DNA from: Schmidtea nova
Taxonomy: Eukaryota
Length of the DNA stretch: 64,000 nt
Direction: 5' to 3'
NCBI GenBank assembly: GCA_044892505.1
Contig: CM097883.1
Location: forward strand, 360,778,001 to 360,842,000
Both the position numbers and the translations under genes were made by a program. Below the pieces are notes generated by a model that was not told where the DNA came from, did no database searches, and saw nothing but the letters and a program-made list of their open reading frames with translations. This document shows, one piece after another, positions 8,906 through 60,565 of this stretch. How positions within the stretch are numbered: the stretch's first letter is position 1; each line of letters begins with the position of its first letter.

Positions 8906-9153
8906 TTATGTTCGGACAAAACGTGTTGTCTCTAAAAATTCTTTTCACAATTTCTGAACTTTTCTCTAGCTATATATAATTTTTTCCAATAGTTTCTTTT
9001 CAATACTCTGATGTTTACTTTTTAATTGTAAATGTTCTCTTAATTTCTTTATTTGATTTGTAGTTTTTTAATATAATTATTTCTATAGTTATTAAATTCT
9101 GTTTTATTGATTATTTTTTTCAAATTGTCAATTTGGCTTACTATAGCTTTTGC

Positions 9154-9920
9154 GGCGACGCTCTGATATGGGTCACCCGATTTTCAAAAAAATAATTAAT
9201 TAAATTTAAATTAAAATCTATAATTAAATCAATATGTTAATGCAGTTAGTAAATAACCCAAGTAATCGGTGGTGAAGGAATCATCGTGGAAATAGATGAA
9301 ACGTTGATTTCTAAAAAGCCCAAATACTACAGGGGTAGGTGGTATCGAGAAATATGGTTATTTGGAGGTACAGAAAGAGGCAGCGGAAAATGGTTTGGTC
9401 AAGTTGTCATGCTACGAAATAGGGAGACGCTTATTGATAATATAAAAAAATTCATAAGACCTAATTCAATTATTTATTCGGATCGGTGGCCAGCGTACTG
9501 GACGGAAAAATACAATCTTGAAATGCTTGATGGGTTTGATTATATTCATTTGTCGGTTAACCACAAACTATTTTTTAAAGATCCGGTCACTGGTGTGCAT
9601 ACCAACAAGGCTGAAGGTTGGTGGGGGAATATTAAGGTGGACATGCGGAAACGGAGAGGAATGTCTCTCGAACAAAAAATCAATTATCTGGATTTTCGAT
9701 TATGGTTATCTCGCCAGGATTACGAAAATACTAATATCCTTTCAATCTATTGGGGATTAATTAGTAGATACTATCCTCCTAATAAAACGGCAATTTAATT
9801 TTGTTTGTATGTGTATAATTATATTTGTAATTTGGTTATGTTTTAATTTTGGTTTCATTTTAATTTAAATTTAATTAATTATTTTTTTGAAAATCGGGTG
9901 ACCCATATCAGAGCGTCGCC
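9154..9920 (+). mobile_element. Merlin (IS1016/IS1595-like) DNA transposon, 767-bp internally deleted copy
   Basis: Perfect 64-bp TIRs starting GGCGACGCTC; 8-bp TSD GCTTTTGC at 9146-9153 and 9921-9928; ISXO2-like ORF inside. Confidence 0.9.
9253..9798 (+). CDS. ISXO2-like (Merlin) DDE transposase catalytic domain, N-terminally truncated
   Basis: IGGEGIIVEIDET...WLFGG.ER...IIYSDRWPAY...H..VNH..F.DP.TGVHTN..EG.W motifs. No upstream ATG (in-frame TAA at 9250). Confidence 0.85.
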   Translation: MTQVIGGEGIIVEIDETLISKKPKYYRGRWYREIWLFGGTERGSGKWFGQVVMLRNRETLIDNIKKFIRPNSIIYSDRWPAYWTEKYNLEMLDGFDYIHLSVNHKLFFKDPVTGVHTNKAEGWWGNIKVDMRKRRGMSLEQKINYLDFRLWLSRQDYENTNILSIYWGLISRYYPPNKTAI

Positions 9921-10091
9921 GCTTTTGCTATAGCAAGCCAAATTTGAAATTCGAATTTAAATAATGATAATAGTAGAAAACATAACCCCAAACATAAAGC
10001 GCTTAAATAACTTAAAGGGGGGGGGGGTTCCGGTACGCACAGTACCTTACTCAATACAAATAATAAATAAAAATTTCCAGCTTTCAAATAC

Positions 10092-15457: not shown

Positions 15458-17106
15458 TGATCATATCTATGATTGTTAATTCTAAAGTTAAATCAAAATC
15501 TAGATTTAAAATAAATTAATACTTGCGTTTTTTGTATATTATCAGTTCTTGTAGAGAACAATGTTCTTGTAGAGAATAATTTTTCTATCTAAAACAAGGT
15601 TTTTTTGTAAAAATAATTTCTCATGTAGAAAATTCTTGCTATTCTAACGGAACCAAGTAGTCAACGCAATGATTTAACATGTATAAATAGCATTTTTCTT
15701 GTGAAAGTTTAGCGGGTGGGATCGTAAATACTATTTTTTGTATTTTATGTGTTAATATGGATGATTTTAAGACATATTTTAGTAAAAACACACATATTTA
15801 GTATATTTTATGATGATTTTAGTAAATAATATGGTCATTGCTTATTTTAATACCAGTTAGCCAAAACTTACTTGTCATTATGACAATGTCATAGTAAATT
15901 AATGCGGTTTATATGAATAACGAATTACTGACACATATAAATTATAGTAAAATCTTCAGTTTACAATTTCTTTGTTGCCTATACACATGATTTACAATCA
16001 AGTTGCAATAGAAATGCAATCAAGTTGCAATTCATGAGTAATACACACATAGATCTTGGATAAATTTGTATAAATACTTGAAAATTTATGATTATTTATA
16101 AAATGAAACAAGAAATATTTATTATAAATTTGATTGATGGTCTTTTGTCTAAAGAAAAAGATGATGAAATCATATCAAATTTACAAATCCTAGTGTCCGA
16201 TGCCGAGAAAATATATCATTCCAATCCCATCAACTATTCATGGATTTTGAATAAAAAATAGATTACAAGCAAGAAACATGCATTCAAAAGCATGTTTTAC
16301 TCGTAATTTGAGTCTGAAATGAAGTGGTCACATGTCATTTTGGCGTTCATGTATATAAAACAGATAATGGATAATTCGGGTTAAAATTATGAAAATTATT
16401 TTCAATGATCAGTTCAGGTATATTATTTTTATTTAATTATATTATTACAATGGCAAATACTAATAGAATTGGCTGAAAATATTAGAACTATTAGAAAAAC
16501 CAAAGAAAAATTGAAAAATTTATTGAAGATAACAATTGGATTCTGTAGCATTTATACTATTGTAAATTTAATTTATTGAAAATAAATGTATTTTTGTTTG
16601 ATATTATTATTTTTACAGATTATTTAACGATTTTATTTTAAAACTAGTTAAATACATGGTACTTTAGTTAGGTCACGAGTGTAAAATTTATTGATTTTAC
16701 ATTCTTGTCTATGTAAAATTAAATAGTATTTATGTGAATAAAATCGATTTTTAACACAATAATACTGTAAATATTAGATGATTGATCAAATTAATGACAA
16801 GAATTATAAAAATCAATAAAAGTTTGCTATATTGATGGGTTTATTTTAAAACAAAGTAGATAAATTCGGGTTAAAAAGTAATGATGTGTAAAATGACCTG
16901 TGTATGTGTGATTGATTCATGTTATGTATGTTACGCATATGTTACGCAAGTGTTATGCATTTGTATTGCAAGTGTTATGTACGTATATTGAATATGTCCT
17001 ATATTGTGATTATATTGAGCTTAAATTGAACAAAATATTTTTTCAAAAGTAAATACTATAAAATATTAAAAAATCAAACAAAAACAAATTAAACATTTAT
17101 TATTTA

Positions 17107-17370
17107 TCAAATGTTTTCATCAATGGTTGCACAGTTTTCATCCATGTTTGAACATTTATCATCAATATTTGAACATTTATCTACAATGGTTGAAAAATGA
17201 TATTTTCTAAACTCATTTTTTAGAATCCATACATGATAGTTCTTCAACCGATCAACGCAACTTTCACATTGATATACACAAGGTTCATGATATATTACTA
17301 CCAATAGTTCCTGATCAATGGTCTTTAAATGATCCAATAAAACAGCATTGAGATCTATTCCGGTTGACAT
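17107..17370 (-). CDS. Hypothetical 87-aa protein at the centre of the foldback
   Basis: ATG start and stop, C..C pair, C-terminal 7-aa repeats (DKCSNID/DKCSNMD/ENCATID). No recognised family. Confidence 0.3.
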   Translation of the reverse strand: MSTGIDLNAVLLDHLKTIDQELLVVIYHEPCVYQCESCVDRLKNYHVWILKNEFRKYHFSTIVDKCSNIDDKCSNMDENCATIDENI

Positions 17371-17604
17371 CCATATTCGAAATGGTATAATTTCCGGTTC
17401 CTAGTATATCAAATCTTTTAAAAGACATTGATAAAGCACATCTGCCTTGTTAATTAAAATTTGCATAAGTTTTTCTAAAATAAATGTTAAAAAATGAATT
17501 ACAAATAATCAAAATTTCCCATTTGTTGTTAAGTTTGACACTTTAAAATATAAATGAAAAATAACTGGTATACTAATTATTTACACGCACACTTATTTGT
17601 TAAT

Positions 17605-17920
17605 AAAATATTGAATGAAGCTTTTGCAGATAAAAATCATCACAAAATATGTTCTGTTACCAATGTTCTGCTACTAGGGTTCTGTTAGATTGGTACTTAT
17701 ACTTGAGATTATTGATAAATGAATAAAAATATTCAGTATGAGCTTTTGCATATAAAAACCACACAAAAGATGTTCTGCTACTAATGTTCTGTTAGGAAGG
17801 TTTTGTTACTTGAGATTATTGATACATGAATGAAAATATTCAGTATGAGCTTTTACATATAAAAACCATCACAAAAGATGTTCTGCTACTAAGGTTCTGA
17901 TATTAATGTTCTGCTAATAG
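17605..17920. repeat. Degenerate direct repeats of about 110-120 bp (3 copies) with GTTCTG(C/T)TA sub-repeats
   Basis: AATATT...GAGCTTTT.CA.ATAAAAA.CA.CACAAAA.ATGTTCTG at about 17608, 17728 and 17836. Confidence 0.75.
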
Positions 17921-19169
17921 GGTTCAACTACTGTGTTACTCATCACATTTCAAGTCTGAGTTGTTGATATAAATCACTGTGATGCATATTACGCATGTGT
18001 GAAACACTTTTACTGTATATGTCATGTTATGCATGTACTACATGAGTCATGCACTTGTATTGCAAATGTTATGCACTTGTATTGTTTGTGTCATTGCTTG
18101 TGTCATACACTTGTGGAATTCAGGAACATGCATATTTTCTAACATTTCCCTTAAATAATAATCGATTTTACAAATTTTAATTAGTATTTTCAGAGTAAAT
18201 TTAATACAAACTAGTAAAGAATATTGAGAATTTCTGTATTTATTAACCAATCATTTATTAATCAATGATTTTGGGTACTTCATGATGATATAAAATGGGT
18301 TAAGTTATTGTAAAATGATTGAAAAATGATAAAACAACGACCATTATTACCCTGTACATTCAATTATAGAAATCTTTACAAGTGTAAAAACCATTAATTT
18401 TCAACTAATTACTCATTGGCTTTTTATAATATGTCAAAATACTTGTATTTTAATCAAACTTTGAGTTAGTTTCTATAGTCAATTTCTTAATTGTGCAAAA
18501 ACAACGATTTTTTTATTCATAATCCATGACTAGTTGATGGGATTGGAGTGATATGTTTTCTCGGCATCGGACACTAGGATTTGTAAACTTGATATGATTT
18601 CATCATCTTTTTCTTTAGATAAAAGACCATCAATCAAATTTATAATAAATATTTCTTGTTTCATTTTATAAATAATCATAAATTTTCAAGTATTTATACA
18701 AATTTATCCAAAAAATAGTAATAAAAAATAGTAATAAAAATAATATTAAAANNNNNNNNNNNNNNNNNNNNNNNNNNNNNNNNNNNNNNNNNNNNNNNNN
18801 NNNNNNNNNNNNNNNNNNNNNNNNNNNNNNNNNNNNNNNNNNNNNNNNNNNNNNNNNNNNNNNNNNNNNNNNNNNNNNNNNNNNNNNNNNNNNNNNNNNN
18901 NNNNNNNNNNNNNNNNNNNNNNNNNNNNNNNNNNNNNNNNNNNNNNNNNNNNNNNNNNNNNNNNNNNNNNNNNNNNNNNNNNNNNNNNNNTGTGTAATAC
19001 ATATTAGTAATACATTTACAGAACACTTGCGTGTCATGTGCAGAACACATGCATGAAAAATTTAGAAGAAAAAAAATCCTATCCAAAATATTTTTTTCGA
19101 TATCTCGAACTTTCATAAAATTTAATTTAAAAAAAATTTCTTTGTTAAACGAACATAGAAACATTTTTA

Positions 19170-19412
19170 AAATGTCTTTGTTTGGTTTATCTTTTTTAAA
19201 GACCGTTTCCGGCTACAGCTTTGACGATAACAAAAAATTATTTCTAAGATAAAAGTCTTAAAATATTTTCATCTTTCCAGAACACTAATATCATTTTTCA
19301 AATGAGCTTTGGTTCAAGCTATAGGGGGGTTACTTTTGTTTGATTTATCTTTTTTGAAGACCGTTTCCGGCTACAGCATTGACCATTTGAAAAGTCTATA
19401 ATGAGATAAAAG
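19170..19412. repeat. Tandem subterminal-type repeat array split by the Gypsy insertion (continues at 36247-36560)
   Basis: The unit GGTTTATCTTTTTGAAGACCGTTTCCGGCTACAGCATTGA...GATAAAAGTCTTAG occurs on both sides of the element; the empty site reads GATAAAAGTCTTAG. Confidence 0.8.
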
Positions 19413-20399
19413 TGTTGAGGATACCTAAATTCAAAATAATATAATAAATAAACAAAATTACTTGGGGGAAAATTGTCATGGGGAATGACACGATTGATTG
19501 GAGCCTGGGAAAGAAAACGGAAGTAAAAAGGAATGAGAAATGAGAAGGGGAAACAAAAGAAAAGAAATCAGACAAGCAAAACGAAATAGAGGTCAGCACT
19601 AATTAACTAGTGCAAATAGGAAGAAATTCTAAAGTTGGGAAAAACAAAAACAACAACAAGAATTTTATCTTGACAACCGGTCAGAGATAATGTGGGCAAA
19701 AAGCAAACAAGCCGAAGCGGCAAAAAGGAGAAAAACAGAGGTTATCTTGACAGCTGTCAAAGATAACTCCGTTGCTGAAAAAATGAATGGAAAATCATGT
19801 TGGAAAAATGTAACAACAGCTGATAATTTTAAGTGCTACAAAGTGAAGAAGTATAAAAGGAGGAAGCATCTCAGAAAGAAACACAACATTGTATACAGAA
19901 GTGGTTAGAGAAAATATTTGAGAGAAAGCGTTTGAGAAAATAAAGCTAGTAAAATTCATTAAAAAGGAAGCAGAAAAACGTCCAGAGAAAGTTAAAGAAG
20001 AGTCAAAAGGAGAATCCAATAATTGAAACCAGAAACTAAGGGATAAGCAGCAGGAGCTTATTCAAGCGTTGAGAAAATAAAGCTAGTAAAATTCAGAGAG
20101 TAAATCCAAGTCAAATAAAGAAAACAACCAGTCAAATTACCAATTGTTATACTCCCCAGCAGTGAGTGATTTCGAACATCGATTATACACTAGTGCTATT
20201 CTTCACTATAGTGTCGTAATAAGCACTGTATAATCAGCTGTAGTTTGAATTTGGTCAGTTCATTGTAAATCGAAGTTATTTGTGATAATCAATAAAATTT
20301 CCTGTTGTCAGTTGTTATTGTGGGTCAATAAAGAGCACGTTTTGGAGTCAGGGTAATAATTTGTTAATTATAAAGTCACCAACGAAAGATAACCCAACA
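19413..20399 (+). repeat. 5' LTR (987 bp)
   Basis: TGTTGAGGATACC...GATAACCCAACA; matches 35261-36246. Confidence 0.97.
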
Positions 20400-20404
20400 T
20401 TATT

Positions 20405-20422
20405 TGGTGAGCCCGACGTGAT
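20405..20422 (+). promoter_or_regulatory. Primer binding site complementary to the tRNA-Trp 3' end
   Basis: TGGTGAGCCCGACGTGAT begins 5 nt after the LTR and is a 17/18 match to the classic tRNA-Trp PBS TGGTGACCCCGACGTGAT. Confidence 0.88.
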
Positions 20423-20636
20423 CAAACGTTGGTGAGGAGCGATTGAAAAAGTAATTGGGATATATCCGGCGAAATAAAGTGGTGAAGAATTATTGAAATA
20501 AAATTTATTGAAGAGATAGTGAAAATAATTGTGAGGAAAAGAAAATACTAAACAAAATTGTGAAAAGGTAAATTATTAATTGTTGTAATAAATTTGAATT
20601 TAGATTTTGCGAAACTTGAGAAAATAATTTATTAAA

Positions 20637-23600
20637 GTGAGTCGATATAATTTACGAAGCAAAAGTAAAAAGGAACCCATAATGAGTAGTGAAGATTTGC
20701 CAGTATCAGTTATTAAAGAAAATAATGATTTTGCAAGTTGTCAAAGATTACCTGTGGAACAATATGGAGGAGATCCGGTTATTTTTGTAGATTTTATGAG
20801 TGATTACTACATGTATGCAACGGCGTACGGATGGTCTCAAGCGATTATGATTCAGAGATTACCTTTATATCTTAAAGGAGCAGCTAGAGAGGTTTGGCAA
20901 CAGATTGATAAAAAATTAATTGGTAATGATTGGGCAAAGTTGAAAGATGCGTTAGCTGCAAAACTTATCGGAGGAGATATCAAAAGATTAATGCGTCAAA
21001 AGTTTTATAGTAGAGTTCAAAATCCAAATGAAACAGTGAGCGAATTTGCGTATCATTTGTCAACCCTCGCAAGTAAATCATTTGAAGAAGACTCAAAACA
21101 ACCAGGCCTAGCCCAACAAATGCAAGAATTAATCCAAGACCAATTTTTGTCAGGAATAAACAAAGAAATAAAAACCGCATTATGCTGTGTAGATTATGAT
21201 AATTTTGATGAACTAGTAAAAAAGGCAATGAAAATCGAATTGAATTTGAAGAGCACCAAAAACAAATCTGATGTGTTCGCGATTATTCCAGCTCAAAGGG
21301 AAAGATCAATTACACCAACCCAAAACAATTGGGAGCCAGAAAATAGATTCCAGCGATCAAAAAGTCCATCACCCAAATGGAGAACCGAGTTAAATATAAA
21401 TAGACCAAGCCGTAATTTCCAAGGCGCTGAGAGATCCAGAGTGATCCAGTGTGAAAATTGCAAGAAGATTGGCCATTATGCAAACCAGTGTTGGTTCAAA
21501 AATAATTCCGATAGTACACCCAGAAGAATAACCCAAGATTATCGTACAAACGATAGGGGAACCAATTTTCGGAGAACAGTTCCTGATATAAAATCCAATG
21601 TTAATGAAGTGCAATGTTATCGCTGCGGTAGAAAAGGACATGTTTCCAGAAATTGTTTTTCAAGATCAAGATCACCCTCAACTTCACCTTCACCACAGAG
21701 AGACAATGTAAATTTGAACGGACAAATTCAATGCCATTTATGTAGAAATTATGGACATATTGCAAGATCCTGTCCAAGAAATACGAATAAATTTCAAAGG
21801 CCAATATTAAAGCGAACAATAAGATTTCAAGATGAAAATCCATCGAATGACAATATAGCCTATGTTCAGCAAGATGGTTTTAGAGAAAAGATCGAAAGCG
21901 ATGTTAAACAGTTGAACCAAAAACTGAATAAATTGATAGCCAAATTTGAATCGGATGAAGAAACAGATACCCACATGATGACGAGGAAAGAGTTGAGCGA
22001 AAGCGAGTCAGAATCAGATAAAGTACAAATCAATAAAGCTAAAGCCGACATACAAAGTGAAAGGAGTACTGTATTTATTGCCAAAATCAGAAAGTTAGTT
22101 GCGGAACCAGACGTAAATTCCCAGAAAATAACAGAATTATTTACGAGGCTAACTAAAATACCTTTAAGTCTGACAAAAATTAAAACTGTTATTAAACTTT
22201 GTGCAGAATGTTATGCAGCAAGTGTGGAAAAACGAGATGTATTCAAAGATTTTATGAGAATATTTGGGCAATATCTACGGAAAAATAAATGGTTAGATCC
22301 TATATTTATCCAAATGAATGCTCCAGATGGTACAAAATCCAACTATAAAATCGATGCATACGAGAAAGTACGCGAGCTAAAAAGAGAAGTAATGCACAAG
22401 TGTGAAAGTTGGGCGGTGGAACTCAAATTTATGGATCAAGTATTAGAGGATGGCGAATTCTTGGTAGATTATGGATTAATTCCTGGCGGTGAAAATGAAA
22501 TGCAAATGACGAATATGATCGCCAAGGAAAAAACAGTAACAAATGACTCTGACGAAATCAGATTTGAACTAATGGAAGCATTGCTTAAAGGAAACACAGG
22601 TGACATTATTGATAAATTAAATAATATTTTGAATTTAGAACTCAAAGTAGAAGACAAGTTAAAAATTCTAGACTGTGTTAGACCCTATATGAATGCGGAA
22701 AACGAATATGGTAAAACAATAAAAACTCTTATTCAAAAATTTGGTCAAGAATTCAGGGAAGAAGGGATTTATAATGAGCCATTCGTAGTACTGTTAAAAA
22801 TAAATGGTCAAGGAGTAGAATATACGGATGAACATTGGTATACGAAAGTGAATAAAATTCGTCGAAGAACAGCAGAAATCATGGGCAATGATGGAATAAT
22901 TGTGCTGACGTATAAAGGTTTTGAGCTAGACGATGATGAATATTTATTTGATTGTGGATGTATGCCACGAAAGCGTAACGAAGATAGATTTCTTACGGAT
23001 CAAAATTTTATTAATGATATAATTGCAGTGAAACAAGTGGATACAGATGAAGTAGAAAAAGGTTATAAAATTGAATTACCAGAGTTCGGCAGTGAAACAA
23101 TGGATAATGAGGATGAAATATCAAAGGAACAAGAAATGACAGAACATGGAGAGGAACAGGAAACTGAGCAGAGAATTGATGAAAGTATAATAAAAACGGA
23201 AGTTAAAAATGAAGCGTATATGACAGAAATGGAGATTGATAATATTACGGAGGAAAGACAACGCAAAGATTTATACGAGGTGAGATGTGAAATAATACAG
23301 AGACTCCAAGGTGAGAGAGGTCAGAAGGAATTAAAAGAGACTGAAAAGGTTGTACGTGCGCTGGCAAATGAATTATATGGCGAAGCAGCAGAGAAAACAC
23401 AAGTAGAATTATATGTGAGAAAAATTGCAAAAAAGTTGAAAAAGAGACTTTATGTGGTCTTGAGATATGTAAAAGACAACAAGGAATTCTGTGATGATGG
23501 AGTGATAACCAATATGATGACAGGAGAAATGGATAGAGATTTAGTATTGACAATTACGAGTTATATTTTGTTAGAAATCGGGACACATGATTATGTAAAT

Positions 23601-26600
23601 ATGGAAAAACGAGATGAAGTAATCAAAAAGGCGAGCAAAGTATTGTATAAGCATGTGGGCAAATGGATAAAGGAAATTGGAGGCTGGGAGAAATTAGTTA
23701 AACAAAAAACAGAATCATCAGTCGAAAAGAGAGAAAGTTACGAAGGAATACCGAGAGGTAAACCTATGAAACTTCCATTTATAATGTTTATGATCATAAT
23801 ATTATGTGCGATTACGACGCAAACAACATCTTTAATTGCGTACGATTGTTCTCAAACCAAAATGGGAAAGATTTATTCCATGGTGGACATGACAGAATGT
23901 TCTGATGCACACCCAATGAGTTTAACAGTTGAAAATGATGTAAAGTATCATGTATACCAAGAATCAGGCTTTAGACATGCGGTAGTAAGAGAGTGCATTG
24001 TAAAGAGAACGAGCTTTGTGTTTTATTGTGGCAAATGGAGTCACACATCACTAATTAAAATGTATTCAATCCCAAGGCCAGTTGATATAAACCCAGAAAA
24101 TTGCATGGCTGCGTTTCAAACAGGGGAAGTGAAAATTAGCCCCGAGGTTAAATTGAAAGCTAAATTAAATCATGCTATACGAGAAACAATTATCGAAAAA
24201 GGAACAATAAAGGCTAATGGGGATTGTAAAGGAGAACCGTACAAAATGAATGGAGAAATTATTGATCAAATTGTTGTGATGGAAGAGTATTTGACGGAAT
24301 TGAGAGAATTCCAAGGAGCTTTTGATGACGACACAGGCAAGTTACAAACGCATCCATTCTGCAATATGAAGCAGGCTAACTGTCAAACAGGAGAATCAAT
24401 TTTGGTGTACGAAGTTAAGACAAATCTATGTAATTTAATACATTTGAAAACAATGAGTTTTAATGAAATGAGTGGAGAACAGTTGAGAGAAAGACCGGAA
24501 AATTTGAATGTGGAGGCAAAACCGGACATGACAATCAGAATTACCCCATTGAGAACCAGAAAAACTCCAGTTGTTTTGATGTCAACTTTATTAGATGACG
24601 GTATGAGATTTATTCGAAAAAATGTGGTAAATAAATGTGGTCAAACGGTGTATGAGACCAATTATAAAGGAATTTATGTATCCAAGAAAAGAGTCGAGGA
24701 AGCTCAAGTCCAAATACATAGTACGGATATCAAATTGACAAATTATTTTAATAACAAAATAGACTATTTGTTCCACTACAGTCAAAGTATTATGGAAAAT
24801 ATTTACAGAGAAATGATATTAAACGATTGTAAGTTGAATAAAGAAATACTACGGAACAGAATGGCGATGGCAGTCACAAATCCAAACTTGGTAGCACCTA
24901 TGTTAATATCAGAAAACGGTGTGTTTGCAAGAGTATTTGGAGAAGCATTGTATAGCTACAAATGCAACGAGATTCCCGTGCAAATTATAAAGTACGAGCA
25001 ATGTACCAATGAATTGCCAGTAAGTGTTAATGGTAAATTGAGATTCATGGAGCCAATAACTCGAATATTGTTGGAAGAAGACGCGAAACCTAAACTTTTA
25101 AAATGTAACCGATTGCTCGCACCATTATATCGACTAACATCAGATTCGTGGATATCATTACCAGATCATAAAGGAGTAAGAAATCCAGAAAAATTAGAAT
25201 TAACAAAACTTGAATATTTAATAAATTTTACATCATTGGACAAATTAGCACAAACTGGGTTGTATTCTCAAGAAGATGTTGAAGAAGCCCGAAGAAATCT
25301 ACTATTTCCATCAAAGAAAGAACGAGTCATTACTGAAATGATTGATACTATATTACCAAGTGGTGAAGGCAAAGTAAATTATGATTATTTACTAACACCA
25401 GATCATTATAAGAAAGCAGCGTACAATACGATGAAAAAGATATGGGGGAAATTCATGTTTTTGGGACAAGCATGTGCAGGATTAATTGGAATTTATGTTA
25501 TGTTCGTGGTGATTAAAGTGATAATATCTCAAATACTAACTACTCATCAGCTATATGTTATTTCGGGATGGTCCTGGAAACTGATTATCGGATGTATTCC
25601 ATTTCTGGCAAGATTTGTAATTACAAAGCATCAATATAAAGAGATGGGGAAAGTCAAGTCACGACTAAATAATGACGGAAGAGACATTGATTCGAGTTCG
25701 GACAGCGAGAGTGGGAATGGGGGTAAAGTAAAAGTACCTCCAATATATTATTATAAAAACAGTAAAATTAAAATTAATGATATACGAGAAAAATCTAAAT
25801 CTTTGAATTTATTACAATCGGTACCACAAACAAGTGAAACAGACACATTCAGGCGATTATGCATTCCAAAAACTTTTCTACCAACAGCACCAATATATCC
25901 AGTAGAGAAGTTAAAAGAAATGAGACCAGTTGAAAACATTGAATTGACAAATGAGCAAATCGCACCAACTAGTGCAGAAATTGAAAGGAGAAACATGCTG
26001 GGATTACCAGGAAATTATGCATTAATGACAATTGGAAATAAAGGAAGACAGCCAAGAATATGGATACAAGTGAATAAACATAGAGTCGAAGCATTAATAG
26101 ATTCAGGCTCAAGCAATACAATATTATCAGATAAATTATTAAATTCAGGGGAAAGAGCACGAATGAAAAGCACAGAAGAAGTTGTACGATCAATGACGAA
26201 AAACAAATTAAATATCATTGGACAGATCAGAGTAAAATTCAATATTGGAAATAAAGAAATTGTTCATAATGCGCTAATAATGAAAGATAGCCCAGTAATG
26301 TGTTTGGTAGGGATGGATGTGTTGGAGCAATTGGAAGGAGTCTCTCTTGATTTGAAAACCGGAAATCTAATTGTAGGGAAAACAGGAAAAGTTATTCATG
26401 AAACGGGAGATGTGTTTCTAAATCAAACGTTAAGAGTACCACCTCAGAGTGAAGTTATTTGTTATGTGAATACAATGAGAGTTCCAGACGATGAATTTAT
26501 ATTTCAACCAAGTGAGAATTTAATTGCCAAATATGATACTCCAATATGCGACGAAGTAGTGAAAGTTCAAGATCAATTAATTCCTGTTCGCATCACTAAC

Positions 26601-29600
26601 AATAGCGACAAAGAAGTGTCATTTAAACCAAAAACGAAATTAGGAAAGCTAACAAAAATCCAAAAAATCAATAATAAAAGATTACCAAAAAATATTAAAA
26701 TATACAAAGAACCCCAAGTTGACAGTGCAGAGTTGACGCAAGAGCAAACACAAACATTTACAAAATTGTTGAGAAAATATCAAGATATTTTTGCGAAACA
26801 TGAGTATGATTTGGGAGTAACTCATATAATTGAACATGAAATTCCATTAATTGATGAAACTCCAATTAAATTACGACCATACAGAATTCCGTATGCGCAT
26901 CAAGACGAAAGCGATAGACAAATAAAGGCTATGAAAGAATTCCATATTATTAGAGACAGTTTTTCACCATTTTCTTCCTCTATTGTTGTAGTCAAAAAGA
27001 AAGACGGTGAACTGAGATTTTGTATTGACTACCGAAAACTGAATCAAGTGACAAGAAAGGATACGTATCCCATTCCGGTTCCTCAGGAAATGTTTGACAA
27101 AATGGGAGAAGCTCAATATTTTACTGTTATTGATTTAAACAAAGGCTACAATCAATTCAAAGTTAAAGAGACAGATAAAGGGAAAACAGCGTTTTCAGAT
27201 GGAAAAGGTTTGTATGAATTTAATGTTTTACCATTTGGTTTAACAGGTGCACCAGCGACATTTCAAAGAGGAATGAATTTTGTGCTGCGAGATATTCCAC
27301 ACGCCTTGGTATATATTGATGATATTATAATCTTCTCAGGTAATTTCAAAGAGCACATGAGAGATGTGGAAACAGTATTTAAACGGCTCAGAGAAGCAAA
27401 TCTCAAAATTAAACCATCAAAATGTGAATGGGGAAAGTCAGAGGTAGTGTATGTTGGACATATTATTTCACGAAAAGGTCTACAACCAAATCCAGAAAAT
27501 GTTAAGAAAATTAAAGATTATCCAACTCCAAAAAATGTTGATGATATTAGACAATTTCTCGGGTTAGCAAGCTATTACAGAAAATTTATTAGAAACTTTG
27601 CACATGTTGCTCAACCATTAACGATGCTATTAAAGAAAACCACAAAATTCGTGTGGGGCAAAGCTCAGCAGGATATTTTCGAAATACTCAAACAAAAGTT
27701 AATGATGAATCCAATATTACGATGTCCTGATTTCACAAAGACATTTATGTTAATGACGGACGCAAGCGGTTTTGCGTTGGGAGCGGTATTAGGACAAAAG
27801 GTTGAAGGAGAAAAAGATCATGTAATCGCATATGCTAGTCGATCATTGAAACCACATGAGAAAAACTATTCAACAATCGAAAAAGAAACTCTTGCTCTAG
27901 TATATGGCATAACAACATTTCGACAGTACTTAGTTGGCCGAAAATTCATTGTCTATACAGACCATAATCCATTACAATGGTTAATGAAGCATCGAGATGC
28001 AGCAAGTAAATTAATTAGGTGGTCGTTAGCCTTGCAAGAATATGACTTTGAAATCAAATATCGAACAGGAAAATCAAATGCTAATGCTGATACCTTGTCT
28101 AGAATTCCAAATGAGGAAATTAATAATAACCAGGAAGAAATAAATTTAAGAGATACTGTATTTGCAGTAGTTAAAGCAGCAAATAATATGGCAGAGCTAC
28201 AGAGAGATCAAGAAATGGATGAGGAGCTGAAACAAATAATAAAACATACAGTAATAATGAAAAAAGATAAAGAATTGAAACAATTAATCGAGGAAAAACA
28301 TAAATATGTTATTCACAGAGGTATATTAAAATATATTAAAAATGATGAATTGTTAATAGTGGTTCCAATAATACATCGAAATACGTTATTATTACAGTAC
28401 CATGACATGGCATTGGGAGGACATTTGTCAGCAAGAAAAACACTGTCGCGAATAAAACTAAAATATTTCTGGAATACAATGGAGCAGGATGTAAAGCAAT
28501 GGTGCAACACTTGCAAAATATGCCTGACTCGAAGAAATACTGGAAAGAAAATAAAGGTTCCTCTAAAACCAATGCCAATACCAGCAGCGCCAATGGAATT
28601 TTCAGCAATGGATATCATCGGGCCTTTACCCGAGACAACGAATGGAAATAAATACATTTTGGTATTCTGTGATTATTTAACCAAATGGCCAGAAGCGTTT
28701 GCTATGCCAAACCAAAAGGCAGAAACTGTTGCACAAATATTTGTTGAAGAAATCATATTTAGATATGGAGTTCCAAAGAAATTGCTAACAGATCAAGGGA
28801 CAAACTTTCAGAGTGATCTGTTTAAATCTATTACAGAATTATTTGGTATATATAAATTGAGCACATCACCATATCATCCACAAACAGATGGGTTAGTGGA
28901 AAGATTTAATGGTACATTAATTAATATGATCTCATCCTACGTGAATCGAAAGCAAAAAGACTGGGATCTGTTCATTAGACCATGCTTATATGCCTATCGA
29001 AATTCAGTAAATGAGAGTACGGGAGAAACGCCCTTTTATCTTATGTACCTAAGACGAAATAATATGCCAATCGATTTAGAGTTCCAATCACCAACTTCCC
29101 AATATTTAGAGATTCCAAATTATAAAGTTGCTCTGCAAGAACGTTTACAATCCGCTTGGACTCAAGCCGGATTAAAAATAAAATATCGACAGGAGCAATA
29201 TAAAGAAAGTTACGATAAAAAAGCGCATGAGCACGGAATAAAAATTGGCGACCTAGTGTATCTAAATAAGCCAGAGCCAACAAAGGGACTCTCAACAAAA
29301 TTACAAAGACCATTCAAAGGTCCGTATACGGTCTGTGATGCGACTGCAACAAATCTAAAATTGCGACCAATTAATAATAAAAAAGCAGAAACAATTGTAG
29401 TTCATGCCAATAGATGTAAGAAAGTGCCTGAACTGGAACATCAGCTACGAAATAAACAAAACAAAACAAATGATGAAATAGAAATCCGGCAAAAGTTCCA
29501 AAAAAATCCAACTCCATTGAGTTATATGAATAAAGTTTTATTCATAACGACAGTTTTAATAAATATGGTAACGAACACAGTTGGAATAAAAATGGATATA

Positions 29601-30326
29601 CCATATGCGGTCAATAAATTACCATCTTTAGAGAAAATAGACGTATACTTAATGAAAGTAGTTCTCACTCTTAATCTGTCAAGGAACAATTACAAAAAAC
29701 CACTTCGTAATAAAGGAATTTATACAAACAATCAATTGTTTGAAAGAAATGTTCAAATTGAGATGATATACTGGAATAAAACGAATCAAGTTCAAATTGA
29801 AAATTGTGATACTACAATAATTGTTTCATATAAAGCTGAGGTCGAGGGAAAAGTAACTATTATTATAAATAATAAAATTAAGGTGGTATTGAATGAACAC
29901 CGAAACAGAGCGAGAGTCAGTACTCAGAACTCAGGAACCGAATCACAAACAAGCAAACTCCTTATAGCAAACCAATGCAGCAAAGGGAAAACCAATCCAG
30001 ACCGATGGCAAACTATATGCATAAAAGACAGACAGATCTATTTCGTTCTCGATCAACCCTCTAAACAAACCCTTGATCACAATCTAACTCTACCATTAAC
30101 TCTTTCATGTACAAAAATCGAAAACTTTTCATTAAACTATAAAGAAAATTCATTCACTAACAATTGTGTTGATATGTTTTCTGTATGTATCATAATGGCA
30201 AGACCAAGAGTGATCTTGCTCATTTGCTTTATCCTCATTTCACGAACTGACAAAAGAAACAATTCTAATTGTGATTTTCAATATTCTGAGTCGCAGATAT
30301 CAATGCGGTTGGAATCAAGGGTGTAG
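20637..30326 (+). CDS. 3229-aa Gag-UBL-UBL-Bcl2-like-Env-PR-RT-RNaseH-IN polyprotein
   Basis: No internal stop. Gag core, 3 CCHC knuckles, DSG protease (26100), YIDD (27312), TDAS/EKE/TDH RNase H, HHCC + D,D,E integrase and a GPY motif. GTG at 20637; first ATG at 20682. Confidence 0.95.
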   Translation: MSRYNLRSKSKKEPIMSSEDLPVSVIKENNDFASCQRLPVEQYGGDPVIFVDFMSDYYMYATAYGWSQAIMIQRLPLYLKGAAREVWQQIDKKLIGNDWAKLKDALAAKLIGGDIKRLMRQKFYSRVQNPNETVSEFAYHLSTLASKSFEEDSKQPGLAQQMQELIQDQFLSGINKEIKTALCCVDYDNFDELVKKAMKIELNLKSTKNKSDVFAIIPAQRERSITPTQNNWEPENRFQRSKSPSPKWRTELNINRPSRNFQGAERSRVIQCENCKKIGHYANQCWFKNNSDSTPRRITQDYRTNDRGTNFRRTVPDIKSNVNEVQCYRCGRKGHVSRNCFSRSRSPSTSPSPQRDNVNLNGQIQCHLCRNYGHIARSCPRNTNKFQRPILKRTIRFQDENPSNDNIAYVQQDGFREKIESDVKQLNQKLNKLIAKFESDEETDTHMMTRKELSESESESDKVQINKAKADIQSERSTVFIAKIRKLVAEPDVNSQKITELFTRLTKIPLSLTKIKTVIKLCAECYAASVEKRDVFKDFMRIFGQYLRKNKWLDPIFIQMNAPDGTKSNYKIDAYEKVRELKREVMHKCESWAVELKFMDQVLEDGEFLVDYGLIPGGENEMQMTNMIAKEKTVTNDSDEIRFELMEALLKGNTGDIIDKLNNILNLELKVEDKLKILDCVRPYMNAENEYGKTIKTLIQKFGQEFREEGIYNEPFVVLLKINGQGVEYTDEHWYTKVNKIRRRTAEIMGNDGIIVLTYKGFELDDDEYLFDCGCMPRKRNEDRFLTDQNFINDIIAVKQVDTDEVEKGYKIELPEFGSETMDNEDEISKEQEMTEHGEEQETEQRIDESIIKTEVKNEAYMTEMEIDNITEERQRKDLYEVRCEIIQRLQGERGQKELKETEKVVRALANELYGEAAEKTQVELYVRKIAKKLKKRLYVVLRYVKDNKEFCDDGVITNMMTGEMDRDLVLTITSYILLEIGTHDYVNMEKRDEVIKKASKVLYKHVGKWIKEIGGWEKLVKQKTESSVEKRESYEGIPRGKPMKLPFIMFMIIILCAITTQTTSLIAYDCSQTKMGKIYSMVDMTECSDAHPMSLTVENDVKYHVYQESGFRHAVVRECIVKRTSFVFYCGKWSHTSLIKMYSIPRPVDINPENCMAAFQTGEVKISPEVKLKAKLNHAIRETIIEKGTIKANGDCKGEPYKMNGEIIDQIVVMEEYLTELREFQGAFDDDTGKLQTHPFCNMKQANCQTGESILVYEVKTNLCNLIHLKTMSFNEMSGEQLRERPENLNVEAKPDMTIRITPLRTRKTPVVLMSTLLDDGMRFIRKNVVNKCGQTVYETNYKGIYVSKKRVEEAQVQIHSTDIKLTNYFNNKIDYLFHYSQSIMENIYREMILNDCKLNKEILRNRMAMAVTNPNLVAPMLISENGVFARVFGEALYSYKCNEIPVQIIKYEQCTNELPVSVNGKLRFMEPITRILLEEDAKPKLLKCNRLLAPLYRLTSDSWISLPDHKGVRNPEKLELTKLEYLINFTSLDKLAQTGLYSQEDVEEARRNLLFPSKKERVITEMIDTILPSGEGKVNYDYLLTPDHYKKAAYNTMKKIWGKFMFLGQACAGLIGIYVMFVVIKVIISQILTTHQLYVISGWSWKLIIGCIPFLARFVITKHQYKEMGKVKSRLNNDGRDIDSSSDSESGNGGKVKVPPIYYYKNSKIKINDIREKSKSLNLLQSVPQTSETDTFRRLCIPKTFLPTAPIYPVEKLKEMRPVENIELTNEQIAPTSAEIERRNMLGLPGNYALMTIGNKGRQPRIWIQVNKHRVEALIDSGSSNTILSDKLLNSGERARMKSTEEVVRSMTKNKLNIIGQIRVKFNIGNKEIVHNALIMKDSPVMCLVGMDVLEQLEGVSLDLKTGNLIVGKTGKVIHETGDVFLNQTLRVPPQSEVICYVNTMRVPDDEFIFQPSENLIAKYDTPICDEVVKVQDQLIPVRITNNSDKEVSFKPKTKLGKLTKIQKINNKRLPKNIKIYKEPQVDSAELTQEQTQTFTKLLRKYQDIFAKHEYDLGVTHIIEHEIPLIDETPIKLRPYRIPYAHQDESDRQIKAMKEFHIIRDSFSPFSSSIVVVKKKDGELRFCIDYRKLNQVTRKDTYPIPVPQEMFDKMGEAQYFTVIDLNKGYNQFKVKETDKGKTAFSDGKGLYEFNVLPFGLTGAPATFQRGMNFVLRDIPHALVYIDDIIIFSGNFKEHMRDVETVFKRLREANLKIKPSKCEWGKSEVVYVGHIISRKGLQPNPENVKKIKDYPTPKNVDDIRQFLGLASYYRKFIRNFAHVAQPLTMLLKKTTKFVWGKAQQDIFEILKQKLMMNPILRCPDFTKTFMLMTDASGFALGAVLGQKVEGEKDHVIAYASRSLKPHEKNYSTIEKETLALVYGITTFRQYLVGRKFIVYTDHNPLQWLMKHRDAASKLIRWSLALQEYDFEIKYRTGKSNANADTLSRIPNEEINNNQEEINLRDTVFAVVKAANNMAELQRDQEMDEELKQIIKHTVIMKKDKELKQLIEEKHKYVIHRGILKYIKNDELLIVVPIIHRNTLLLQYHDMALGGHLSARKTLSRIKLKYFWNTMEQDVKQWCNTCKICLTRRNTGKKIKVPLKPMPIPAAPMEFSAMDIIGPLPETTNGNKYILVFCDYLTKWPEAFAMPNQKAETVAQIFVEEIIFRYGVPKKLLTDQGTNFQSDLFKSITELFGIYKLSTSPYHPQTDGLVERFNGTLINMISSYVNRKQKDWDLFIRPCLYAYRNSVNESTGETPFYLMYLRRNNMPIDLEFQSPTSQYLEIPNYKVALQERLQSAWTQAGLKIKYRQEQYKESYDKKAHEHGIKIGDLVYLNKPEPTKGLSTKLQRPFKGPYTVCDATATNLKLRPINNKKAETIVVHANRCKKVPELEHQLRNKQNKTNDEIEIRQKFQKNPTPLSYMNKVLFITTVLINMVTNTVGIKMDIPYAVNKLPSLEKIDVYLMKVVLTLNLSRNNYKKPLRNKGIYTNNQLFERNVQIEMIYWNKTNQVQIENCDTTIIVSYKAEVEGKVTIIINNKIKVVLNEHRNRARVSTQNSGTESQTSKLLIANQCSKGKTNPDRWQTICIKDRQIYFVLDQPSKQTLDHNLTLPLTLSCTKIENFSLNYKENSFTNNCVDMFSVCIIMARPRVILLICFILISRTDKRNNSNCDFQYSESQISMRLESRV
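20750..21773 (+). other. Gag capsid region and three CX2CX4HX4C zinc knuckles
   Basis: LPLYLKGAAREVW...RVQNPNETVSEF...DQFLSGI; knuckles start at 21450, 21615 and 21732. Confidence 0.92.
22299..22510 (+). other. Ubiquitin-like domain 1 (about aa 555-625)
   Basis: LKFMDQVLEDGEFLVDYGL aligns with ubiquitin LIFAGKQLEDGRTLSDYNI; preceded by a beta-beta-alpha pattern. No di-Gly terminus. Confidence 0.75.
22779..22990 (+). other. Ubiquitin-like domain 2 (about aa 715-785)
   Basis: VLTYKGFELDDDEYLFDCG; same layout as UBL1, 160 aa downstream. Confidence 0.62.
23268..23705 (+). other. Bcl-2-like domain (about aa 878-1023)
   Basis: BH2-like KVLYKHVGKWIKEIGGWEKLV (compare Bcl-xL TYLNDHLEPWIQENGGWDTFV), BH3-like VVRALANEL, and a degenerate BH1 at about the expected spacing. 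Confidence 0.68.
23766..25630 (+). other. Env-like glycoprotein, chuvirus-G/class III fusion type, with signal peptide and C-terminal TM
   Basis: MKLPFIMFMIIILCAITT signal, then LIAYDC; Cys pattern ...NDCKLNKEIL...NP...GEALYSYKC..C.NELPV...F.EP.TRIL...C; TM at 25452 onward followed by SGWSWKL. Confidence 0.85.
26040..26370 (+). other. Retropepsin (aspartic protease)
   Basis: VEALIDSGSSNTIL...CLVGMDVLEQL. Confidence 0.93.
26760..28110 (+). other. Reverse transcriptase and RNase H
   Basis: RFCIDYRKLN, LPFGLTGAPATFQ, YIDDIII, FLGLASYYRKFI, TDASGFALGAVL, EKETLA, TDHNPL. Confidence 0.97.
28380..29420 (+). other. Integrase (HHCC, DDE core, GPY/F)
   Basis: YHD..LGGH...C..C; AMDIIGP; LTDQGTNF; DGLVERFN; RPFKGPY. 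Confidence 0.96.
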
Positions 30327-30599
30327 TAAGCTACTATTTTGCATGTAATGACAATATACAGTATTATTTCCCTTATATTTCTTTAGTTAATGATTCTTTA
30401 ATAATCAATTGATAATCTTTTGTTGTAAAATATGTTGTTAAAATTTAAATTATATTGATGTAATTTGATTGGTCGAATAATCACACTGTAGGGGGAGAGA
30501 ATTTTTGGATATAATGATGGCGGTGGTTTTCAGAGTTTGACTTGGAAAATTTTTAAAGAAAAAAAAAAAAAAACGATCAAAATTAAATCTAAAGGAAGA

Positions 30600-32016
30600 A
30601 TGGAAAAAATCAACAGACCAGCAAGATTATACGGGAAATATTATCAAGAAAGAAGAAGCTATACAGACAAAGTTATCGTAATAGAAGAAAATTTGAAAAT
30701 TCCTAATTGGGTAAGGTTAGGGAATGAAGAAATGAGAATATGTATGGTGGAATTGGAATGGAAATCCAATACGAAATTTTCAGAAGTGTTAATAAGAAGA
30801 AACGAAGAGACATGGGAGGTTCATGTTTTTAAAGGAAGAGTAGAAATTTTAGAGAATGATGCAACGGTTCTACAAACATTGGAAACTAATTCATCATGGA
30901 AGATATCAAAAGAAATATGGCATAAGAAGATGCGAGCAGCCAATGGAACGGCTTGCATTGTTTTAGAATGCCGAGGACCAGCTCCAACAATCCCGGCATT
31001 AGAACAAATTATGACCAATGAAGAAGAAAATAGGTTACTCCCGATAACCGAAGAAATGTTAAAGCACCGAAAATCATTTTTGAGAAAACAAATGACAAAA
31101 GAAGAAATTAGAAAAAATATTATGTTCATGGACGCGGAATATGGCGTAAGTGAGCAAAACAAGATGGTTCCGCTGTCTATTTGTTTAATAAACTATGACG
31201 GAAGAATATTGTATAACTCATTAATAACCCCCAGAGAAAAGCTAAAAAATTACGTTACCCAAATTCACGGCATCACAGAGAAGATGTCAAGAAATCAAGA
31301 TGATCAATACAAGAGTCAGAGGAAAATTCAGCAATTAACGGCAAGGAAAATCTTGATTGGACATGATCTCCAAAGCGAACTATTATACAGTGGAGTACAG
31401 ACAAGGGATCTATGGGGGTATTCGCGATTTGGCGGCAGCTCGAGCATTGACAAAAAGAAGAGTCACAAGGAACGGGCAATGGTATAAATTGTCAATAGTA
31501 GCCGAAGAAATATGTGGCATCAGAATGCAAAAAGGGAATCATACGGCATTAGAAGACACTGATGCAATTATAAGAATTTATTTGGCCATAGAAAATGAAT
31601 GGCAGGATGATGTAGAGTGTGCTGAAACAACCAGCAAAAGAAAATATTCGTTAGAAGAGTATAGGAAAAGAAAGGCTCCAACAACCAGTGAGCAGATGGA
31701 GGAACCAAAAGAGAAGAGGAAAGCAGAAGTTCAGCAAATGGAACAAGACATTCACATGGTGGAACACATGCATATTGCTCGTGAGAAAACTGCGAAAATG
31801 ATGGTTGAGAAAAAACTTGATTTATTTAAAAATGCAATTGTGGAAATGGACAAAATAATGATGCAACAAAATAGTGTTGAAAAAGGAAATCAAACAAAAG
31901 AAGGAATAGTGGTCGATAAGATGATCACGTTCAATGGTGAGGAATTGGAAGCAACAAAGGTTGTCGTCACGTATAGAGGAAGAAACCAAACTATCAAAAT
32001 TGTAATTGATAAATAG
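30600..32016 (+). CDS. Accessory ORF2: cupin-like domain + DEDDh 3'-5' exonuclease (REXO4/ISG20-like) + charged tail; one frameshift near 31414-31418
   Basis: ExoI FMDAEY (31131), SICLINYDG.ILYNSLITP.EK..NY.T.IHGIT, ExoII ILIGHDLQSEL, then in the next frame IRDLA...L..VAEEI.G...Q.G.HTALED (31540-31557). Removing one G from the G5 run gives a 471-aa protein from ATG 30600. Confidence 0.82.
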
Positions 32017-58484: not shown

Positions 58485-59852
58485 TTATTGTCCTGCGTAA
58501 TTTTGTGGTGCCAAAAGCTTTGTGAGAGCTTGGGTTTGTGATGAGGTGTATTTTGACACTATCAGGGATTTGAGATCATCATACGGGTTGTCTGCGTAAA
58601 GCGCGTCGGCTATTTTCGGGGCAAGCTCGGCTATCAATTCAGATGGTAGGCTGTCGAGTAGGTAATCGGCGCGTGATTTTGGAAAGGAAGACGTGCGCGA
58701 TTCGAAAATGCGGAACCACGACGAGGGTGTGCCGTCGGGATCCAAAAAGAACAAAATTGGGCGTGAAGTGGATGAATAAGGCGGTTCTATAGTGGGTCGG
58801 ACGCCTCCTAAAACGCGGCAATGAATTTCTATGATAGCATTAGGTGGGATGTCGGTGAGTGACGAAACTGGGAAACCATTGCACGTCATGTAAAATTCAT
58901 TCCTATTAATCAGATGAGAGGTGGCGATATCAGTGCGCAGATCCGTGAAAATGGGGATTTGGCGTGTTTTGTGGTTGAAACGCGTGAGGACATATGTTGG
59001 GAAAGTGGCGAAAGAATCGTTGTTGTACATGGTGGATTGAGTGGGGTTGTGAGCGTGAATTGTATTGAATGTGTCAAAAAACTGGACAAGGTATTTGTGA
59101 ATTTTGAGAAAGATAATAAAAATAATTTTAAAATTTAGTATGAATAAAAATAATATAAATAAATATAATATATTATGTAATTTAATATTATAAATAATAC
59201 ATATAAAATACGACTCGCCCGATAATCCCAAATAGCTGTTGCAATTGTTTTGAGAAATAGACGCTTCCAGCTGCCACGCCGCTCCGTTAGTGGAACTGTG
59301 AATCACACAGGAATAGGAGCCGAGGTCGAGTTTACGCAACGGACAAGAATAACTAGCAGTTTTGAATTGAGGATAAACTTTACATTGCATGGTAAATCTT
59401 TGACCAATGACATATTGTTCAGGTAATGAGACAATGTTGACTGAGTATTCAACTGATTGCCTGTTGTAATTGACACTTTCACGCTTTCCTGTTTCTACTG
59501 ATTGACAGAATGTAGTTCCTGAGGCTGGTTGAAATGTCGAGGCTTCCAATTCCATTGTTGACCCGGTCTCAGTAGTTCCTTTAACAGCGCATTTATAAGA
59601 ACCCGAATCATCTCGTCTCAATTGTTCAAAAGTGATGCTGGTGTTTGCGAATTTCGGCATGACGTGTGCAGCTACTTGTTTTGAGTCACTTTTAGATATT
59701 TGACCAAATATCGTTGAATTTGACGAAATTGAGCTCGGTACGACAATATGCAACTTTATAGAAGATATCTGTATGAACTTTAACGACATCGATGACGATG
59801 GTGTTGATATTGAAGAAAAAATTGAATCTGATTTCTTTTTTACCAAAAACAT
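58485..59852 (-). CDS. Chimeric frame: Ser/Thr-rich + Ig-like fragments + intron-like AT tract + UBL(LGG) + Gag N-terminus
   Basis: DDSGSYKC (about 59600), DLGSYSC (about 59315), IEIHCRVLGG (GG at 58803-58808), SWFRIFE...LDSLPSE...NPYDDLKSLI. The element's own start may be ATG 59030. Confidence 0.7.
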   Translation of the reverse strand: MFLVKKKSDSIFSSISTPSSSMSLKFIQISSIKLHIVVPSSISSNSTIFGQISKSDSKQVAAHVMPKFANTSITFEQLRRDDSGSYKCAVKGTTETGSTMELEASTFQPASGTTFCQSVETGKRESVNYNRQSVEYSVNIVSLPEQYVIGQRFTMQCKVYPQFKTASYSCPLRKLDLGSYSCVIHSSTNGAAWQLEASISQNNCNSYLGLSGESYFICIIYNIKLHNILYLFILFLFILNFKIIFIIFLKIHKYLVQFFDTFNTIHAHNPTQSTMYNNDSFATFPTYVLTRFNHKTRQIPIFTDLRTDIATSHLINRNEFYMTCNGFPVSSLTDIPPNAIIEIHCRVLGGVRPTIEPPYSSTSRPILFFLDPDGTPSSWFRIFESRTSSFPKSRADYLLDSLPSELIAELAPKIADALYADNPYDDLKSLIVSKYTSSQTQALTKLLAPQNYAGQ

Positions 59853-60042
59853 AATCGGTGTTGATTCAGTTGATAAAGTATTCGATGTTTCCGTTGAAAT
59901 CCTATTTTGATTGAATGGTGCAAGTGAATCGATTTTTGCGCTCGGTAATTGTCCAAATGTAAACCCGGTTGATGTTGATGTTGCTGAGTTTTGAGAAAAT
60001 CCACTAGTAATAAAAACTATTCTGTTTGCCTCATATATTATA

Positions 60043-60060
60043 TCAGGGTTTCTGACACCA
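60043..60060 (-). promoter_or_regulatory. Primer binding site, tRNA-Leu-like
   Basis: TGGTGTCAGAAACCCTGA begins 2 nt after the LTR; the first 11 nt match the common Leu PBS TGGTGTCAGAAG. Confidence 0.7.
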
Positions 60061-60062
60061 TT

Positions 60063-60565
60063 TTTAGCTGCTGCAAATATATTTAATAAGACAAAAAAAA
60101 TATATTTAATAAAGCAAATTGTTCTTTCTTAGCTGCAGATATATCATCAGATTTCACAGTTGATTTAGTATTCTTTTCCTTCACGAAATAGCTGTATTGA
60201 ATGCGCTCTGGTATATCAATGGTAGAAATATCAATCTTTGTGCTTGTAGCAATCACTGGGGTGATTGATTGTACCAATCGCCTCTTGTGCTCACTGAATT
60301 CCTTTGTACTAATTGCGTTCTTTTTCATTACTACATTCAATGGGTAAATTTGTGGTTTGCTTTGGGTTTTAATTAGTTCAGCTTCCATTTTTTAAATTCC
60401 TTTTTGCATTTTGGTTTTTTTAAGTCTGCTTAAAGTGCCATTTTTTTGTTATTTAAACAATCCGATAAATAAATTAGTAATTGATTTTAATATATAAATA
60501 TTGATATTTAATTAAATTGCTACATACAAATATCGTAAAAACATACAAATAACGGAGGCACTACA
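60063..60565 (-). repeat. 5' LTR (503 bp)
   Basis: Minus strand starts TGTAGTGCC; matches 56621-57123. Confidence 0.9.

Follow-up and report, generated by a model that had tools for sequence, protein, structure and literature searches.

A 64,000-nt window of the Schmidtea nova genome, whose positions are used throughout, contains a recent insertion of an LTR retroelement that, judged from its domains and LTRs, is of the Ty3/Gypsy type. Its first open reading frame (ORF1) encodes, in this order, Gag, a ubiquitin-like region, a Bcl-2-like domain, a signal sequence, a predicted class III fusogen (Env), a transmembrane helix (TM), and protease, reverse transcriptase, RNase H and integrase (PR-RT-RH-IN). 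A further membrane protein (GP2) is predicted downstream of the integrase. We consider it probable that the ORF1 product is threaded through the ER membrane in four passes and cut by the host signal peptidase, with Pol packaged through Env, and with the class III Env and GP2 as surface proteins. The observations on which this explanation is built are the gene order, the single frame, the LTRs, the copy number and the conservation.

The element, its copies and its reading frame

The element measures 16.8 kb from LTR to LTR and has the following features (+, forward strand).

19409..19412, with a second copy at 36247-36250 (no strand): target-site duplication (TSD), AAAG, 4 bp
19413..20399 (+): 5' LTR, 987 nt, TG...CA
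20405..20422 (+): primer-binding site, pairing with the 3' terminus of host tRNA-Trp
20682..30326 (+): ORF1 polyprotein, 3214 aa counted from the Met at 20682
20862..21773 (+): Gag, with Retrotrans_gag (PF03732, E 9.5e-8) and three CCHC zinc knuckles (PF00098; 21450, 21615 and 21732)
22089..22991 (+): helical and ubiquitin-like region (PF00240, E 0.0034, below the cut-off)
23307..23717 (+): Bcl-2-like helical domain, weak evidence
23766..23831 (+): internal signal sequence 1, by hydropathy; predicted cleavage between TQTTS and LIAYDC
23832..25451 (+): class III (gB/chuvirus-G-type) fusogen ectodomain
25470..25526 (+): Env transmembrane helix
25551..25625 (+): GWSW helix, conserved, likely amphipathic and not membrane-spanning
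25626..26045 (+): Env cytoplasmic tail/linker with budding-like PPIY (25737), PTAP (25881) and YPVEKL (25896)
26046..26339 (+): aspartyl protease, DSG at 26100 (Pfam)
26991..28043 (+): reverse transcriptase (YIDD at 27312) and RNase H (Pfam)
28365..29330 (+): integrase, with H2C2 finger, core and GPY
29532..29588 (+): predicted internal signal sequence 2 (Kyte-Doolittle 1.5; weak in the window copy)
29589..30161 (+): GP2, second ectodomain, fibronectin-III (FN3)-like by homology (alignment; sister-family model)
30183..30323 (+): fourth predicted TM, followed by a short, PDZ-binding-like tail with E-S-R-V at its end
30492..32016 (+): ORF2, DEDD-type exonuclease (PF00929, E 2e-5)
35245..35258 (+): polypurine tract
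35261..36246 (+): 3' LTR, 986 nt

The hallmarks of Ty3/Gypsy elements are all present: LTRs bounded by TG...CA, a primer-binding site, a polypurine tract, a short TSD, and the pol order PR-RT-RH-IN with Gypsy-type Pfam domains. The two LTRs show no mismatch over 986 aligned bases and differ by a single 1-nt gap. The placement in Ty3/Gypsy is based on the Pfam domains and on the closeness to published Schmidtea mediterranea elements. The earlier note on this DNA had pointed to BEL/Pao retroelements as carriers of such fusogens; membership of the window element in BEL/Pao is rejected, since the Pfam domains are of the Gypsy type and no gag or protease domains of the BEL/Pao type were found. In particular, the Pfam scan of the element gave no Peptidase_A17, DUF1759 or DUF1758, which we take to be BEL/Pao markers. 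A BEL/Pao element with a captured chuvirus glycoprotein, as in mosquitoes, would agree with chuvirus-type G being the nearest viral fold, and BEL/Pao captures of chuvirus G are cited in the accessible text of PMC13524379, but the Pfam matches (Retrotrans_gag, gag-asp_protease, RT_RNaseH and Integrase_H2C2), the 4-bp TSD and an Env about 74% identical to that of an element grouped with Ty3/Gypsy in the same text make this origin exceedingly improbable.

Dozens of young copies of the window family are present in the genome. In a search of the same genome with Env, 75 of 4073 candidates were scored, yielding at least 49 matches of the window family (family 1) at 93-100% identity and at least 26 matches of a sister family at 75-76% identity. 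The match lies without a stop in a 3232-aa frame in 17 of the 49 scored family-1 matches, and 13 of the 26 scored sister-family matches are inside frames of 3401-3402 aa. Thirty family-1 loci were fetched; the AYDCS motif was found in 29, and in 28 of these 29 the Bcl-2-like motif, Env and protease follow one another in a single open frame. The recurrence of this frame across the copies of both families indicates that the position of Env is neither due to chance nor an assembly artefact. Nine further copies were compared, and the seven measurable ones have 0-2 LTR mismatches and a 4-bp TSD of their own in each case, indicating that the window family is very young and has been spreading recently.

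The window copy is inserted within a short tandem repeat with units of about 140-160 nt (19160-19412 and 36247-36620). The tRNA-Trp genes, the source of the element's primer, form a tandem array with a period near 282 nt (G000:C3, from ~128,022,000), the pattern of which has 1984 matches genome-wide. Elsewhere in the window, the terminal inverted repeats of 16056-18711 (203 nt at 97%) and 9119-9955 (99 nt at 91%) probably mark non-autonomous DNA transposons, and a 16-nt purine-rich satellite occupies 48016-49178. A second small element (56651-60560) lies between direct repeats of ~450 nt that are 97-99% identical. On its minus strand, the frame 58485-60128 combines immunoglobulin-like segments (V-set, E 8.8e-6) with a gag-like DUF7041 segment. 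The whole resembles a decayed LTR element that has captured part of a host mRNA.

The stop-free frame containing ORF1 (20628-30326, 3232 codons) is open throughout, bearing out the earlier claim that env sits between gag and protease in the same frame with no stop. The motifs named in support of that claim also proved to be where they had been placed, in one frame: MKLPF at 23766, LIAYDC at 23832, the TM at 25470-25526, GWSW at 25566 and DSG at 26100. A sequence scan detected four in-frame slippery-like heptamers. In the ubiquitin-like region, relatives give weak ubiquitin/UBX matches, and two units were counted by eye, a repeat that self-BLAST did not recover. For the Bcl-2-like domain, a profile of four sequences searched against the PDB gave Bcl-xL as the top natural protein (E 6.9e-4), outranked by three designed helical repeats, and Pfam Bcl-2 matched two of the four members, with an E-value of 1.1e-4 at best and of 0.065 for the window copy. 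The Bcl-2-like assignment is therefore weak in the window copy, yet it agrees with the published layout of Burro elements. This domain is only 30% identical between the two families, indicating fast change.

The predicted fusogen Env and the predicted post-integrase protein GP2

A small residue precedes the mature x-x-[YF]DCS start of Env in all nine aligned sequences. The ectodomain (aa 1051-1590) is 540 aa long with 14 Cys residues and one N-glycosylation sequon, matching the Cys-rich ectodomain of about 540 aa described in the earlier note. It matches the Pfam family PF24664 (Monjiviricetes_fusion) with an E-value of 3.4e-91. Because phmmer against PDB sequences gave chance matches only, a fold search was needed. 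The AlphaFold2 model, a monomer built from 14 sequences with a moderate mean pLDDT of 63, includes domains rich in beta-structure and a central helix of 48 residues. In Foldseek searches, the top match in BFVD is the G protein of Tacheng Tick Virus 4 (E 1.8e-34, 20% identity), the top ranks among viral models are held by chuvirus, chu-like, qinvirus and xinmovirus glycoproteins, and the top PDB match is HSV-1 gB (E 7.9e-14). At 0.3-0.56 the global TM-scores are low, which is to be expected when a hinged protein is modelled as a monomer. Thus, the proposal of a class III fusogen nearest to chuvirus-type G is upheld by both the Pfam match and the Foldseek ranking, and the predicted protein would fuse membranes. 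Env is 76% identical between the two families, with synonymous sites saturated. Its pN/pS between families (0.16) is low, like those of Gag CA (0.17) and integrase (0.14), indicating that Env is kept by purifying selection.

Downstream of the integrase, the pair of signal 2 and TM 4 passes in six of the eight polyproteins that reach the integrase. In the window copy, TM 4 passes and signal 2 does so only on the weaker scan; P0005 has neither after the integrase. The same integrase-GP2 fusion occurs in a separate, unrelated record. GP2 matched no Pfam family and no PDB sequence, and its leads in the ESM Atlas were all below 0.8. However, a model of the sister-family GP2 (moderate pLDDT of 61) found FN3 domains in Foldseek with a best E-value of 1.8e-5, a fold that the window GP2 would share by homology. 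The window GP2 is about 127 aa shorter than its counterparts in two sister families in our alignment, and TM 4 of the window family contains two Arg residues. Together with the weak signal 2, these features suggest that the fourth pass may be decaying in the window family. GP2 changes fast, being 28% identical between the two families. Its C-terminal tail ends in S/T-x-V, presumably a PDZ-binding motif, in 9 of 10 proteins (chance 0.7% per tail), and this ending is also found in diverged copies that are 33-43% identical.

Four relatives (P0001, P0002, P0003 and P0005) lack the Bcl-2-like domain and have two or three protease-like domains each, including one between the integrase and signal 2. 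The position of this extra domain would fit a need to free the integrase from the signal-2 anchor. P0005 also has C2H2 zinc fingers within its Env tail. One of the four proteins from the representative search, P0016, proved to be a repeat protein with no relation to these elements and was set aside.

ORF2 is split into two overlapping frames in the window copy and is one open frame in seven of nine other copies. A non-autonomous partner family (L037-L045, for example G000:C1:80673500-80683400) has the same LTR and primer site. It encodes a diverged Gag capsid (45-48% identical) fused to ~290 aa of different sequence that ends in a hydrophobic stretch, and has no Env or Pol. From a shared junction (window 29346), its GP2 and ORF2 are 95-99% identical to those of the window in DNA sequence. 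This partner family suggests that GP2 and the exonuclease may be worth keeping without Env and Pol. In the 3' region of the window element, a GC-richer stretch (32870-34180) with donor-like sites and short Cys-rich minus-strand frames is perhaps a captured spliced host fragment. This stretch is absent from all nine copies checked and is found nearly whole in ~14 other places, including some non-autonomous copies.

Predicted topology and mechanism

The topology was predicted with Kyte-Doolittle hydropathy and a crude, position-independent insertion scale. No segment of the Pol region exceeds the TM threshold in any of nine polyproteins. On the insertion scale, the GWSW helix scores +4.6 to +9.4 in nine sequences, compared with -0.5 to +3.5 for the Env TM, and is thus probably amphipathic. 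Were this helix a third membrane span, Pol would lie in the lumen, and a cytosolic Pol would call for a separate product. Its conservation, its moderate hydrophobicity (Kyte-Doolittle 1.47) and the 82% identity of the TM plus helix between families could be read in this way. The helix contains Lys/Arg, however, and in nine of nine sequences its score is poorer than that of the TM by 1.6 units or more; moreover, a second signal after the integrase and linker motifs of a cytosolic type fit only a cytosolic Pol. A spanning GWSW helix is thus very unlikely.

The linker motifs in question lie in the Env tail and not in Gag. PTAP occurs between the Env TM and the protease in 4 of 10 sequences. Of the 10 sequences, 9 have a hydrophobic-Y-P-x(2-3)-hydrophobic motif in the Env tail, and the motif recurs only three times elsewhere in ~29,900 aa, counts that refer to a pattern defined after viewing the sequences and to ten related, not independent, rows. 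Together with the second signal/TM unit, these budding-like motifs support the predicted cytosolic location of Pol, and suggest that Pol may be packaged via Env.

The combined signals fit a predicted cytosol-lumen-cytosol-lumen-cytosol path. The earlier note had envisaged a polyprotein threading the ER membrane with Gag in the cytosol, Env in the lumen and Pol back in the cytosol. These locations agree with our prediction, in which the luminal Pol that the note regarded as contrary evidence does not appear, but the predicted number of passes rises from two to four, since a second signal/ectodomain/TM unit follows the integrase.

In the preferred four-pass explanation, signal 1 would direct Env to the ER lumen and, once cleaved, would stay as a tail anchor on Gag-Ubl-Bcl2, for which the anchored capsid of flaviviruses offers an analogy. 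The Env TM would bring the chain back to the cytosol, so that PR-RT-RH-IN would hang from the Env tail. Signal 2 would then direct the FN3-like GP2 to the lumen, and the last TM would leave the PDZ-type tail in the cytosol. The host signal peptidase would thereby produce a membrane-anchored Gag-Ubl-Bcl2, an Env whose tail bears Pol, and GP2, after which the protease of the element would release RT and IN. As signal cleavage would cut Pol off from Gag, its route into the particle would be the Env tail. Particles may bud at the ER with the help of ESCRT, given the PTAP/YPxL budding-like motifs of the Env tail. Env would fuse membranes, and the fast-evolving GP2 may serve in attachment or sorting.

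A single chain may, as the earlier note proposed, yield Gag, Env and Pol at 1:1:1 unless splicing intervenes. Retroelements normally require Gag in excess, and a single strict chain counts against this explanation since it delivers no such excess. Alternatively, with the same element and topology, most of the protein might come from RNAs that are spliced or begin internally (encoding Gag only, or Gag-Pol minus env), in which case the ratio would not be 1:1:1 and Pol would be packaged as an ordinary Gag-Pol. Capsids usually require excess Gag, one donor-like site (23311) precedes env, and the non-autonomous partner family, which has a Gag-like protein of its own, could supply Gag in trans. Against this, a crude scan ahead of env, protease and GP2 revealed no strong acceptor, and the budding-like motifs are in the Env tail instead of Gag. 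Short GP2-bearing copies were considered as spliced retrocopies, but 8 of the 14 fetched loci are recombinant non-autonomous elements sharing one junction with foreign sequence upstream; the remaining six are truncated or diverged copies. We therefore regard the supply of most protein from such RNAs as unlikely.

In its most specific form, the four-pass explanation describes an enveloped retrovirus on a flavivirus-like plan, with four ER passes, a tail-anchored Gag-Bcl2, a fusogen tail carrying ESCRT motifs and the whole Pol, and an FN3 attachment protein with a PDZ tail. We put this full scheme forward tentatively, as rather less likely than not to hold in every part. If true, it would be a reverse-transcribing virus with two-glycoprotein entry, the enzymes of which are packaged through Env instead of Gag.

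Comparison with published elements

Chuvirus, xinmovirus and qinvirus G and herpesvirus gB share with the window Env the same fold, the long central helix and the signal-ectodomain-TM layout. Sequence identity to these viral class III fusogens is 16-20%, and the window Env differs from them in being embedded in a retroelement polyprotein.

The single-frame gag-env-pol layout has already been published, and the window family is one more member of the published group. The accessible text of PMC13524379 (Chary and Hayashi) describes GAG-ENV-POL elements of the gB type in nematodes, bryozoans and flatworms, whose groups are not monophyletic. It catalogues six from Schmidtea mediterranea, among them Smed_errantivirus_1 and _2, listed at ~14.8 kb with 45 and 215 intact copies, respectively. 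The window element shares with these gB-type errantiviruses the gene order, the gB-type Env, the size and the many intact copies. It has env between gag and pol, and its class III ectodomain is flanked by signal/TM and TM. The window Env is identical to that of Smed_errantivirus_1 at 115 of 156 residues in the part compared (~74%, counted by eye), a closeness that fits a planarian host. On the other hand, the window element belongs to a different family, probably in a different host species, and has a tRNA-Trp primer site, whereas 'none' is listed for the Smed elements in PMC13524379. In the accessible text of that paper, we found no discussion of single-polyprotein topology, splicing, a post-integrase membrane protein or an exonuclease. 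In the literature searched, including the accessible text of PMC13524379 and PMC6431247, we found no published account of a post-integrase FN3/PDZ unit, of packaging through Env, or of budding motifs in the Env tail instead of Gag.

The nematode endogenous retroviruses of Sacco et al. 2022, as cited in the accessible text of PMC13524379, are metaviruses with env between gag and pol. Their hosts belong to a phylum other than that of the window element's host. These nematode elements are said to have a continuous gag-env-pro-pol ORF.

The planarian Burro elements offer a further comparison. According to the accessible text of PMC6431247 (Arkhipova and Yushenova 2019), the env of Burro lies in frame between BCL2 and protease, the first such case, and is related to gypsy Env and mononegavirus fusion proteins; no FN3 membrane unit is named there. 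The Gag-Ubl-BCL2-env-PR order in one frame is shared between the window element and the giant Burro/GYPSM1 Gypsy elements, although the Ubl and BCL2 matches in the window are weak. The Burro cargo domains MATH, BIR and ankyrin had no Pfam match in the window element. In PMC6431247, Burro exceeds 30 kb and encodes ~4900-5100 aa, compared with 16.8 kb and 3214 aa in the window element. The window family, being compact (17 kb), intact-looking and very young, makes Burro-type questions approachable: by what means a single frame yields a Gag excess, by what route Pol reaches the particle after signal peptidase has severed it from Gag, and whether such elements move from cell to cell in an animal whose self-renewal relies on somatic stem cells.
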